This document shows, piece after piece, positions 13,566 through 15,589 of a DNA stretch of 64,000 nucleotides. The notes below the pieces were generated by a model. That model ran no database searches. It was not told the DNA's origin and worked only from the letters and a program-made list of their open reading frames with translations. Within the stretch, counting starts at the first letter, position 1. Each line of letters opens with the position of its first letter. Source of the stretch: Escherichia coli (lineage in GTDB: Bacteria > Pseudomonadota > Gammaproteobacteria > Enterobacterales > Enterobacteriaceae); the NCBI RefSeq assembly GCF_016026235.1, contig NZ_CP065613.1; one strand, given 5' to 3'. Both the position numbers and the translations under genes were made by a program.

Positions 13566-13855
13566 TTTGATTATCAAGGATTAATTAAATTCATTCCTGG
13601 CAGGAAAATGGCTTAACATTTGTTAGACTTATGGTTGTCGGCTTCATAGGGAGAATAACATGAGCATTATTAAAGAATTTCGCGAATTTGCGATGCGCGG
13701 GAACGTGGTGGATTTGGCGGTGGGTGTCATTATCGGTGCGGCATTCGGGAAGATTGTATCTTCACTGGTTGCCGATATCATCATGCCACCTCTGGGCTTA
13801 TTAATTGGCGGGATCGACTTTAAACAGTTTGCTGTCACGCTACGCGATGCGCAGG

Positions 13856-13865
13856 GGGATATCCC
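13856..13865. repeat. target-site duplication, left copy (GGGATATCC[C])
   Basis: Same 9-10 nt of mscL sequence occurs immediately outside both IS ends. Confidence 0.8.
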
Positions 13866-13888
13866 CTGAGGGATCCCCAGAAAATTTA
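13866..13888. repeat. IS terminal inverted repeat (inside-end equivalent; contains GATC)
   Basis: CTGAGGGATCCCCAGAAAATTTA read directly; pairs with right end. Confidence 0.8.
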
Positions 13889-15076
13889 GTAAACCATTAT
13901 CATATTGGTATACCGTTGCTGTAGAACTTTCAGCCCTGCGTCAAGTGACAGTGTGTTTAGTATGAGTGGAGAATGTCGAATCACATTCTCCGCCAGTTTT
14001 AATAACGAGATGACTCGCCTGTGCTTCACTGTATTTGCCTGATATTTATGATGTATCCCTTTGTTTTCCAGGCTGAAACCGCTTAACCACATAATGATAC
14101 TGGCTAATGTTGCGATCAGACTCAATACCGTGACCCGCCCAGATGAATGACTGGCACCAAACCGTAGTCCAAATCCCCAGCGAGGATTTTTTTCATCCCT
14201 GAAATTTTGCTCAATTTGCATTCTACGGCTGTATAATTTCATTACCTGTTTTGGCGAGAACTCAGTACTGTTTGTGAAAATAAACCATGGTGATTTCCCG
14301 GCAGTACGAGCTTTAGCCGTCACCGATGGTCTGGTTGCTCTTTCCTTCGAGCGTTTAAATCTACGACCTTTAGGCTTACTTTTATAAAGATAAAAATGCC
14401 CTTCATGTTGTGCATTTTTATCTCGACCCAGCAGGCCTTCACCTAAATAAATTGCTGTCGTTGATGCTTTTGTGCCTGAGTCCGACACCTTTTCCCAGCC
14501 ATTACCAACATTGTAATAATGATTGCCCAGTACCCGGCAAATATAGGTCCAGCCACGGGAGCGGAGCTGTTGGAACCATCGCCCCTGAAAACCGGCATCT
14601 GTAATAACAATGACATCAGTCCCGGGGGAAAAGCACTCAGCAAGCGATTCCAGAAAACGCTCATGTACATCTGCATTCGCTGTCTGTGATGATGGAACGA
14701 CACAACTCATCAACGGTAAAGAACGCCCGTCACATGCCAGGCTTGCCCGCAAAAGCTGAAAACGAGAGGCATGATAAGCACTCCAGTCAATGAGTATCAC
14801 AACACGAGACATTCCCCGCGTAATCTTTTGGGTAATTCGCTGAAAAATGGTGGAAACCTCATTTTGCAAATGTCGATTCCCCAACAGTCGATCCACCCGC
14901 TTTATTTTGTTTTTAACTGATGCCGTACCGGTTAAATGACGCCCGATACTGGTAAGTGTGAGGGAAGCGCCATTTATTACAGCATTAGTTGCGTCAATCA
15001 GTGATTTTTGACGGTAAAGATGCAAAGGGGCCAGTATGTTGTTAAGGAAATTTTGGCATAATGAACGTGCAGGCAT
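13886..15076 (-). CDS. IS10-family DDE transposase, ~396 aa
   Basis: Aligns along its length with recalled IS10 transposase ([13 protein letters not shown]; ILIDWS; ITDAGF; [15 protein letters not shown] carrying the Y-x2-R-x3-E-x6-K signature); ATG at 15076 preceded by AAGGAG; track ORF extends 17 codons further to a GTG at 15127. Confidence 0.88.
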
Positions 15077-15136
15077 AGTGGTGATCTCCTTGAAATTGTT
15101 AGCACAATCAATTAGATCACATCTCACTATGCCTGT

Positions 15137-15159
15137 CTTGTTTTCTGGGGATTCCTCAG
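15137..15159. repeat. IS terminal inverted repeat (outside-end equivalent, next to transposase start)
   Basis: Reverse complement CTGAGGAATCCCCAGAAAACAAG; one mismatch versus left end removes the GATC. Confidence 0.8.
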
Positions 15160-15169
15160 GGGATATCCC
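15160..15169. repeat. target-site duplication, right copy (GGGATATCC[C])
   Basis: Identical to 13856-13865; 9 vs 10 bp cannot be resolved because of the flanking C. Confidence 0.8.
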
Positions 15170-15370
15170 TGCTGTTGTGATGCATTACGGTGTCTTCATT
15201 CAAAACGTCTTTGATTTTCTGATTGTGGCCTTTGCCATCTTTATGGCGATTAAGCTAATCAACAAACTGAATCGGAAAAAAGAAGAACCAGCAGCCGCAC
15301 CAGCACCAACTAAAGAAGAAGTATTACTGACAGAAATTCGTGATTTGCTGAAAGAGCAGAATAACCGCTC

Positions 15371-15589
15371 TTAACAAGCGCCTGAAAGCAGAAGACCAGT
15401 GGTAAAAAAGTGATTTACTTTCTTGCCACTGGCCTCCCAGTTCCCCCGATTGCCATGTTTTCCTTTTCGCATGTAACTACCTTTCCCTTTCTTATTTTTC
15501 TCTACGCGCTGTCGGAATAAGGGATCATGTAGTAATGCTTCTATCGCATTATCCTTTATCTGCCCTTTAGTATGCTGATATCGGCTCAT
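15371..15589 (-). CDS. arfA: alternative ribosome-rescue factor ArfA (YhdL), 72-aa full ORF
   Basis: [51 protein letters not shown]...; 3' end overlaps the mscL stop convergently. Confidence 0.88.

Follow-up and report, generated by a model that had tools for sequence, protein, structure and literature searches.

The mscL gene of this Escherichia coli strain is interrupted by a complete copy of the insertion sequence ISEc60, which almost certainly transposed into codons 66-69 and left mscL as a pseudogene. In the window (i.e., the whole 64,000-nt stretch of DNA analysed here) mscL spans positions 13660-15374, and its reading frame is broken after codon 69 by an intact 1294-bp element, just as an earlier reading of the sequence alone (henceforth the sequence-only reading) had placed it. 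Disruption of mscL by ISEc60 is an ordinary, already-annotated knockout, and is unusual only in that it lies at a favoured 10-base site and recurs. The 10-bp duplication made by ISEc60, its preference for GGGAWWTCCC and the base-exact recurrence of the mscL insertion are the additions of this analysis.

Anatomy of the split mscL locus

Starting at position 13660, the mscL reading frame runs to Gly-Asp-Ile-Pro and then meets a TGA at 13867-13869, all three bases of which belong to the element (its bases 2-4), as had been read before; the junction between gene and element is GGGGGATATCCC followed by CTGAGGRATCCCC. Both flanks carry a perfect direct repeat of exactly 10 nt, GGGATATCCC (a match expected between random 10-nt flanks with a probability of ~1e-6), of which the wild-type mscL locus has one copy only. 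Alignment with an uninterrupted locus showed a clean 1294-bp insertion plus a 10-bp duplication of contiguous mscL sequence. The sequence-only reading had given the duplication as 9-10 nt; 10 nt is correct and 9 nt is not, since removing the element and one 10-bp repeat in silico restored a 411-nt ORF for the canonical 136-aa MscL (identical to the wild-type MscL of other E. coli), whereas removing the element and 9 bp did not. It had also let the gene resume in frame beyond the element, which proved wrong: the net insert is 1304 bp (1304 mod 3 = 2), meaning that the 5' and 3' parts of mscL lie in different frames of the window. The 3' part itself is intact. Such a structure would arise by cut-and-paste transposition of ISEc60, with a 10-bp staggered cut at the target and gap repair yielding the two direct repeats. 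The features of the locus are given in Table 1.

Table 1 Features of the mscL::ISEc60 locus, in window coordinates.
Feature	Position	Strand	Description	Basis
mscL 5' fragment	13660..13869	+	codons 1-69: TM1 and first part of periplasmic loop, then IS-supplied TGA	ORF list, translation
Target-site duplication, left copy, GGGATATCCC	13856..13865	.	perfect palindrome; native mscL codons 66-69	
ISEc60, complete, 1294 bp, IS4 family, IS10-like	13866..15159	-	transposase on minus strand	
Terminal inverted repeat, transposase-3' ('inside-type') end, CTGAGGGATCCCCAGAAAA	13866..13884	+	GATC Dam site at nt 7-10 from tip, as in IS10A	
Transposase CDS, 396 aa, intact	13886..15076	-	start ATG 15076; D97, D160, E289; YREK Y282/R285/E289/K296	
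Candidate extended -10, TGGCATAAT	15054..15062	+	putative outward antisense transcript (pOUT-like)	read from sequence
Hairpin, putative RNA-OUT analogue, 69 nt	15069..15137	+	antisense to transposase SD and AUG; U-rich tract after	
Candidate pIN-like -10, TGATCTAAT	15111..15119	-	putative; overlaps GATC Dam site; IS10A equivalent TGATCAAAT	
Terminal inverted repeat, transposase-5' ('outside-type') end, CTGAGGAATCCCCAGAAAA	15141..15159	-	no GATC, as in IS10A outside end	
Target-site duplication, right copy, GGGATATCCC	15160..15169	.		
mscL 3' fragment	15160..15374	+	codons 66/67-136: remaining loop, TM2, C-terminal helix	ORF list; RefSeq partial mscL

The element aligned over 1294 of 1294 bp, at 99.9%, to many copies annotated as 'IS4-like element ISEc60 family transposase', and differs from the commonest ISEc60 variant by one nucleotide, a synonymous SNP peculiar to this copy (IS position 276, window position 14141). 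It has CTGAGGRATCCCC ends, and its terminal inverted repeats, CTGAGGGATCCCCAGAAAA and CTGAGGAATCCCCAGAAAA, are complete (18/19 matching), as the sequence-only reading had held; the terminal-repeat pattern occurs twice in the whole window against 0 occurrences expected from shuffles. The transposase ORF (15076 to 13886) is uninterrupted, again as described there. Its product is identical to WP_001111632.1, is recorded with Pfam PF01609 and reached 360 bits against NCBIfam NF033591 (cutoff 152) in a profile search. It shows the marks of an IS4-family enzyme, namely a DDE triad and the Y-(2)-R-(3)-E-(6)-K motif, and its DDE/YREK residues align with D97/D161/E292 of IS10A. A sequence search of the transposase against solved structures returned no match at E<=0.01, and the catalytic residues were mapped via IS10A. 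A longer, 402-aa version starting at 15094 was rejected, there being no exact-protein record for it; the true start is the ATG at 15076. The query used in the profile, relative and structure searches carried six extra N-terminal residues, which did not affect the results.

Both mscL fragments bear PF01741 (MscL) in public annotation; for the 5' fragment the record is an identical 69-aa product in public assemblies, and RefSeq lists partial mscL. The 3' fragment lacks its own start codon. It is entered in frame by ORFs from the IS-internal ATG 15036 or ATG 15129, and public assemblies annotate the 81-aa ORF from 15129 as a gene. With a TM2 half that lacks a promoter or start codon, and a native promoter that would now yield only the 69-residue TM1 fragment, the channel is predicted to be absent, i.e., the strain is predicted to be MscL-null and to have lost MscL channel function. 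The genes for mscS and its paralogues lie outside the window.

Preferred target and repeated insertion at mscL

Every one of the 12 intact ISEc60 insertions has a 10-bp duplication, and so does an 85%-identical relative of ISEc60. The symmetrised consensus of the intact insertion sites, gcG/GGGAtaTCCC/Cgc, gives GGGAWWTCCC flanked by G/C as the preferred target, and the mscL site matches it perfectly. This symmetry speaks for a stagger of 10 bp and against one of 9 bp with an extra IS base. When a target matrix built from the 11 sites outside mscL was scored over the window's 62,679 positions, the mscL site ranked second, the first lying within the essential gene secY. That the element struck here is explained by this perfect, palindromic agreement of the mscL site with the preferred target. 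Some ISEc60 copies form tandem pairs accompanied by three copies of a single 10-mer, which shows re-insertion into the same target.

The same split mscL is found in E. coli FDAARGOS_943 (NZ_CP065615.1, I6H00_RS20980-20990), where RefSeq records two partial pseudogene pieces; insertion point, orientation and 10-bp duplication are those of the window, the two sequences show 3 mismatches in 7.9 kb, and the elements differ by 1 nt. The window belongs to another close relative, which lacks the IS5-family insertion that FDAARGOS_943 has between dprA and smg. Two other assemblies share the allele, GCA_031665325.1 with 2 mismatches over 13.3 kb and GCA_900449985.1 with none over 5.2 kb, and a further close relative (5 mismatches in 13.3 kb) has a clean empty mscL site. 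The insertion had been described as fresh, and the perfect duplication, the single synonymous SNP relative to other copies and the empty site in a near relative agree with a recent origin, within the limit that it is common to a small clonal group (the three assemblies just named and short-read contigs) and not confined to one isolate. The accompanying suggestion that the element is probably still active receives indirect support from the up to 38-39 near-identical copies in FDAARGOS_943, where ISEc60 also sits beside slyX, a copy missing from the window, in which the empty target persists. We infer that ISEc60 is currently active.

Strain 2023CK-01509 carries an insertion at the same base in flanks that have diverged from the window by 0.83%; its ISEc60 copy at mscL differs from the window's variant by 14 nt and is identical to that strain's two other ISEc60 copies. 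The junction was found in three further backgrounds. Lineage-specific SNPs lie 45-48 bp from it in 3 of the 4 non-window backgrounds, and 2023CK-01509 has another 143 bp away on the other side, which leaves no shared imported tract. The mscL site appears, from these comparisons, to have been struck independently in at least four diverged backgrounds, in one orientation throughout. Among complete E. coli genomes the mscL::ISEc60 allele is present in 2 of 5426, and in 2 of the 14 that have full-length ISEc60; 124 indexed blocks contain the 69-aa product, and numerous short-read contigs break off at this exact junction, just within the IS. One additional candidate carrier proved to be a wild-type gene ended by the contig end.

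Weighing the alternatives

Multicopy elements (here up to 38-39 places per genome) can be misplaced in assemblies, and the split could in that case be an artefact with the real gene intact. We regard this as practically negligible: the same junctions occur in the complete or long-read sequences of FDAARGOS_943, GCA_031665325.1, GCA_900449985.1 and 2023CK-01509, short-read contigs and the indexed 69-aa product repeat them, and an exact 10-bp repeat of contiguous mscL sequence is what real transposition leaves behind. With the same insertion annotated in RefSeq and shared by several near-identical assemblies, and a clean empty site in a close relative, the insertion is neither an artefact nor new. 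The recurrence could alternatively come from one old mscL::ISEc60 allele, inherited or recombined between lineages, with the copy in 2023CK-01509 gene-converted later. Gene conversion among IS copies is known, and could in principle have homogenised an old insertion in that strain, which is a caveat to the hotspot. Every carrier moreover has the same orientation, and the flanks do not predict one (an asymmetric flank matrix gave no discrimination, 9.7 observed versus 9.1 flipped); with an unbiased palindromic target, a single orientation for all independent events has a ~6-12% chance. On the other hand, vertical inheritance of an allele so rare among complete genomes would need massive loss, the SNPs close to the junction argue against recombination of a shared tract, and the site was independently predicted as a top target, with re-insertion into an identical 10-mer seen elsewhere. 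A single old insertion is thus improbable.

Target preference alone explains the location, which makes it unlikely that selection acted besides it, i.e., that loss of MscL benefits ISEc60-carrying (often invasive, EIEC/Shigella-like) lineages, as the spread over at least four backgrounds, the many indexed 69-aa products and the share among complete genomes with full-length ISEc60 might suggest. EIEC with many ISEc60 copies (e.g., CFSAN029787) retain an intact mscL. The only other apparent inactivating allele, a G5-to-G4 frameshift in the same tract, was rejected as an excision footprint or separate inactivation: most of its carriers have many fragmented neighbour genes, as is typical of homopolymer assembly errors. 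It also seems distinctly unlikely that ISEc60 is near site-specific and that a convergent, one-orientation loss of mscL has been retained as advantageous (e.g., for an invasive lifestyle or less compound entry via MscL). Finally, the split gene might still make a channel if the 69-aa N-half assembled with a C-half translated from an IS-borne outward transcript (from ATG 15129 or 15036). In-frame ORFs do leave the IS into the 3' half, an outward promoter-like element lies close by, and, in the account of Park et al. 2004 given in PMC4786117, split N- and C-halves of MscL reassemble in vitro into a more sensitive channel. However, a U-rich terminator-like tract follows the outward hairpin within the IS, no Shine-Dalgarno sequence precedes ATG 15129, the outward RNA is predicted to start only downstream of ATG 15036 and the C-half would carry 12 to 43 foreign residues as a leader, so that a two-piece channel is very improbable.

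Under the preferred reading, i.e., transposition of ISEc60 into a favoured site of mscL, the predicted MscL-null genotype matters for osmotic-shock or channel-uptake work with the strain. A strong sequence preference of an IS can produce identical convergent knockouts in unrelated lineages, and typing by phylogeny or by pseudogenes can misread these as common descent. Our understanding of transposition and of mechanosensitive channels is unchanged; the 10-bp target and an unrecognised RNA-OUT-like hairpin are small additions to the IS10-type catalogue.

Putative regulation and comparison with related elements

The hairpin at the transposase-5' end has an MFE of -43.1 kcal/mol (z = -5.3); 5 diverged relatives conserve it, showing 2 compensatory pairs and, on the plus strand, G.U-only changes. 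Its placement relative to the ATG agrees with that of RNA-OUT in IS10A. It may thus be regarded as a positional and structural analogue of RNA-OUT outside Rfam family RF00240, the model of which found no match at E<=1 in ISEc60 and gave 85.9 bits for IS10A as a positive control. The only match in the Rfam search of the IS region was a spurious, sub-threshold one to Histone3, on the trkA terminator. If the sense strand were transcribed by read-through, the inverted repeat of the hairpin would sequester the ribosome-binding site. The antisense RNA is predicted to extend from near 15069 to near 15145, and the transposase mRNA to begin near 15104. A generic promoter/terminator scan reported neither the pOUT-like nor the pIN-like candidate, the former because it has no -35 match; the pIN-like -10 is conserved as TGTGATCTA in ISSfl3 and a Salmonella relative. 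GATC occurs at nt 42, within TGATCTAAT, as well as near the tip of the inside-type end, the same two placements as in IS10A. By analogy with IS10, ISEc60 may be controlled by Dam methylation and antisense RNA.

According to the criteria of De Palmenaer et al. 2008 (PMC2266710 Table 1), elements of the IS10 subgroup are 1200-1350 bp long, with 5'-CT termini and 9-bp direct repeats. The 1294 bp of ISEc60 fall within this range and both its ends begin CTGAGG (CTGAAG in IS10A), whereas its direct repeats are 10 bp at mscL and at the 11 other intact sites. Judged by size, CT ends, DDE/YREK motif and end sequence, the element appears to fit the IS10 subgroup. The closest characterised transposases by pairwise identity are those of IS10A/ISVsa5 (~36% over 91%) and ISSfl3 (~52%). 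The earlier label 'IS10-family' therefore holds in the sense of an IS10-like, IS4-family element, ISEc60, but not in the sense of IS10 itself, given the low transposase identity and the 10-bp duplication.

IS10 (IS10R/IS10A of Tn10) is of comparable size (1328 bp) and resembles ISEc60 in its ends (CTGA-RG-(A/G)ATCCCC, with GATC only at the transposase-3' end), in its DDE residues (D97/D160-161/E289-292) and YREK spacing, in a GATC within a TGATCWAAT -10-like box upstream of tnp, in a 69-nt antisense hairpin beginning 7 nt past the first base of the ATG, and in a symmetric target preference. The IS10 target consensus is NGCTNAGCN, unlike that of ISEc60. In ISEc60 the regulatory module also lies 23 nt nearer the element end, and the hairpin, unlike that of IS10, has no Rfam RNA-OUT score. 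The nearest named relative, ISSfl3 (Shigella flexneri pCP301), has identical CTGAGGAATCCCCAGAAAAC / CTGAGGGATCCCCACAAAA-type ends and a hairpin conserved with compensatory changes; unlike ISEc60, it has a 9-bp duplication, CCTGAAGGG (one copy examined), and at the DNA level it is a distinct element.

At the level of the gene, mscL::ISEc60 is like the pseudogenes of Shigella/EIEC-type E. coli, in which the expansion of multicopy IS elements knocks out dispensable genes of the chromosome and rearranges it. Such expansion is illustrated by dppA::IS1, by the altered synteny beside slyX in FDAARGOS_943 and by ISEc60 copies whose two flanks do not match. In the literature we found no report of mscL::IS in Shigella/EIEC, and ISEc60 was mentioned only in passing, in two papers. 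Unlike the random hits of Shigella/EIEC, the mscL insertion lies at a sequence-defined hotspot and recurs base for base in unrelated lineages.

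Anatomy of the mscL insertion and its predicted consequence

The mscL gene, located between trkA and arfA, is present in two pieces (see table). Its 5' reading frame starts at 13660, encodes MscL residues 1-69 (...RDAQGDIP) and is closed by a TGA formed by bases 2-4 of the inserted element, in agreement with the sequence-only reading that an insertion sequence cuts the gene. The terminal inverted repeats were reported as complete and are so, the element tips (CTGAGGGATCCCCAGAAAA and CTGAGGAATCCCCAGAAAA) matching at 18/19 positions; the tip pattern occurs 0 times elsewhere in the window (shuffles expect 0). 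The flanking repeat, earlier put at 9-10 nt, is exact and 10 nt long: in-silico removal of 1294+10 bp yielded a 411-nt ORF encoding the canonical 136-aa MscL, which removal of 1294+9 bp did not restore. The gene had also been described as resuming in frame 1.3 kb further on; its 3' part is indeed intact, but it lies outside the window frame of the 5' part because the 1304-bp insert is no multiple of three. Separately, the trkA terminator hairpin (window 13532-13559) gave a sub-threshold Rfam 'Histone3' match, which at 18.4 bits (gathering score 34) we rejected as a chance match.

Features of the mscL insertion and of ISEc60 targets in the window
Feature	Window position	Strand	Details
ISEc60 insertion	13866-15159		1294 bp
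Exact direct repeat GGGATATCCC	13856-13865; 15160-15169		10 nt; brackets the element
ISEc60 transposase	15076->13886	minus	396 aa, intact; AAGGAG upstream
112-aa ORF from ATG 15036	15036-15374	+	starts inside IS, in frame into mscL 3' half
81-aa ORF from ATG 15129	15129-15374	+	starts inside IS, in frame into mscL 3' half
Antisense hairpin	15069-15137	+ (opposite transposase)	69 nt; -43.1 kcal/mol; z = -5.3
Two proposed promoters of control region	15054-15062; 15111-15119		proposed by analogy with IS10
Top-scoring ISEc60 target GGGATTACCC	20207-20224		inside secY; unoccupied
ISEc60 target AAAAAAAGCGGGGATTCCCCGCTTTTTT	39697-39724		slyX-slyD intergenic bidirectional terminator; unoccupied

Full-length comparison puts the element at 99.9% identity with numerous copies bearing the NCBI annotation 'IS4-like element ISEc60 family transposase', which are found in E. 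coli, E. albertii and Shigella dysenteriae, both chromosomally and on large virulence-type and F-type plasmids; the element is one base apart from the commonest variant (synonymous, IS position 276). The transposase, uninterrupted as described before, is identical to WP_001111632.1 and matches NF033591, a model of the IS4 family, at 360 bits (cutoff 152). Its identity is 36% to the IS10A/ISVsa5 transposases and 52% to that of ISSfl3, and alignment with IS10A places D97, D160 and E289 opposite D97, D161 and E292 and reveals a Y-(2)-R-(3)-E-(6)-K motif. ISEc60 is catalogued and the same mscL insertion stands in RefSeq annotation, and genes disrupted by IS elements are common in E. coli and Shigella lineages rich in them; the earlier observation and its interpretation are correct, though the finding is ordinary.

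The native mscL promoter can only yield residues 1-69, i.e., TM1 and part of the periplasmic loop, and the TM2 half has no start codon of its own. The strain is thus predicted to be MscL-null, a loss that cells tolerate as long as they have MscS-type channels. No polar effect would be expected, since no co-directional gene follows mscL and arfA is convergent, 212 bp from the IS. An alternative is that the two halves of MscL reassemble in the strain as a two-piece channel: two ORFs run from within the IS into the TM2 half, the shorter being annotated as a gene in public assemblies, and purified N- and C-halves are capable of reassembly in vitro (Park et al. 2004, as summarised in PMC4786117). 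Against this, a U-rich tract comes after the outward hairpin, and no Shine-Dalgarno sequence precedes ATG 15129; expression of either ORF is doubtful, and we consider such a channel very improbable compared with the predicted absence of MscL.

Target preference and recurrent insertion at mscL

Eighteen distinct ISEc60 copies were collected together with the flanking sequence; the 12 whose flanks match all carry a 10-bp duplication, as does an 85%-identical relative (GGGCCTACCC). The duplicated 10-mers are symmetric, with the symmetrised consensus gcG|GGGAtaTCCC|Cgc (loci L004-L007 and L011-L020 of other public assemblies, plus window 13856-13865); the preferred core is GGGAWWTCCC with G/C on its flanks, often located in the loop of a palindrome with a terminator-like GC stem. 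The mscL site presents this consensus in perfect palindromic form. On the IS-less window, a weight matrix trained on 11 non-mscL sites only ranked it 2nd of 62,679 positions (z = 4.1), and GGGAWWTCCC occurs there just once. The top-ranked target lies in the essential gene secY, where an insertion would presumably kill the cell. In E. coli TC24, GGGATATCC-type sequence at an unrelated locus (L028; also AREA_C483 and 1218KP) is occupied by a decayed 82% relative with a frameshifted transposase; as this relative lies between GGGGGATATC and GGGATATCCCCCC, the target preference is common to the IS clade.

Tandem head-to-tail ISEc60 pairs share one intervening 10-mer, giving three copies in total (L012/L013, and L007 18697-21294 with three copies of GGTAAATCCC). 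They show that a second ISEc60 can enter exactly the same 10 bp, which implies that target immunity is absent. Several copies have non-matching flanking 10-mers, each of them target-like (L009 22991-24284; L016; L018; L012/L013), which is a signature of inter-copy recombination (inversions or deletions).

mscL::ISEc60 is present in only 2 of 5426 complete E. coli genomes, and full-length ISEc60 in only 14 genomes. The second carrier is 2023CK-01509, whose IS sits at the identical base with unchanged orientation. Over 6607 bp of flank there are 55 mismatches to the window (0.83%); SNPs occur at distances of 48, 78 and 108 bp on the left side of the insertion and 143 bp on the right side. The IS of this strain is 14 nt away from that of the window and identical to the strain's two other copies. 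The exact 69-aa truncated product, which is expected from either IS orientation, is indexed in 124 blocks of a public collection. Among the places read there were three further carrier backgrounds, diverged from the window by 1-2.7%, two of them with lineage-specific SNPs 45-48 bp from the junction. We conclude that ISEc60 has entered the mscL site independently at least four times.

In all independent insertions found, the transposase gene runs opposite to mscL and in the same direction as arfA (window, L002, L033, L034 and L035). On a palindromic target, chance alone would produce such uniformity with a probability of about 6-12%, which is not statistically significant; an asymmetric flank matrix detected no orientation signal at the mscL site and does not explain the constant orientation. 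We found no literature on ISEc60 target preference or on mscL as an ISEc60 hotspot, and both are modest additions.

A different, apparent mscL disruption, a one-base G5->G4 deletion in the CAGGGGGATATCCC tract at codon 66 (L021 about 9014; L039-L046), splits the gene into ORFs of 71 and 64 aa and is seen in many assemblies (403 blocks). Because most carriers also show fragmented trkA, arfA or yhdN, a homopolymer error of long-read sequencing is the probable cause, and we rejected the deletion as a real allele.

Age of the allele and movement of ISEc60

The same insertion occurs in FDAARGOS_943 (3 mismatches in 7.9 kb relative to the window), where RefSeq lists mscL as two partial pseudogene pieces, in GCA_031665325.1 (2 mismatches in 13.3 kb) and in GCA_900449985.1 (no mismatch and a single 1-bp gap over 5.2 kb), which includes the private IS SNP of the window copy. 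Several short-read contigs end just inside the IS at the mscL junction. In GCA_900449985.1 (L031), which otherwise equals the window, a 1-bp indel splits trkA into 232-aa and 223-aa ORFs, probably an assembly error given the intact 458-aa trkA of the window. Comparison with an uninterrupted mscL gives a clean empty site: GCA_901482675.2 (5 mismatches in 13.3 kb) has a single GGGATATCCC.

Collinearity of the window with FDAARGOS_943 spans 921-39717; that strain's ISEc60 beside slyX is absent from the window. With the allele common to relatives and the slyX target empty in the window, the mscL insertion is older than the split of these strains and ISEc60 has moved since, which lends indirect support to the suggestion that the element is probably still active. 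The claim that the insertion is recent is upheld by the empty site in a near-identical relative, but qualified by its predating the split. The slyX copy of FDAARGOS_943 has mismatched flanks and is joined to the lpf/eptB/dpp region, an arrangement that indicates IS-mediated rearrangement. Also absent from the window is that strain's frameshifted IS5-family element between dprA and smg (window about 8086-8088), an IS polymorphism among close relatives. We found no other IS in the rest of the window, the remainder being ordinary E. coli backbone.

Comparison with IS10

Published criteria for the IS10 subgroup include size, CT ends, a YREK motif and 9-bp direct repeats (PMC2266710 Table 1). The earlier assignment to the IS10 family agrees with ISEc60 in size, ends and motif but not in the direct repeat, which is 10 bp. 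ISEc60 has a DDE/YREK transposase, IS10-type ends and a 10-bp staggered duplication. IS10 and IS50 are the paradigm of non-replicative cut-and-paste transposition; by analogy, ISEc60 would move in the same way, with a transposase dimer reading the symmetric target.

The ISEc60 control region mirrors the IS10 layout, about 23 nt nearer the end. One GATC, upstream of the transposase gene, is embedded in TGATCTAAT (IS10A counterpart TGATCAAAT); at the transposase-distal end only, GATC occupies nt 7-10. The antisense hairpin is kept in ISEc60, two 82-85% relatives, ISSfl3 and a Salmonella relative, with two compensatory pairs among relatives and several one-sided changes that stay paired as G.U on the antisense strand only. 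The Rfam RNA-OUT model RF00240 did not detect it and a generic promoter scan flagged neither proposed promoter, so antisense and Dam control of the transposase is suggested by analogy. On read-through sense RNA, the hairpin repeat could cause fold-back inhibition. Although outside the Rfam RNA-OUT family, the hairpin appears to work like RNA-OUT and, like its IS10A counterpart, starts 7 nt beyond the A of the ATG (IS10A nt 114/ATG nt 107; ISEc60 nt 91/ATG nt 84).
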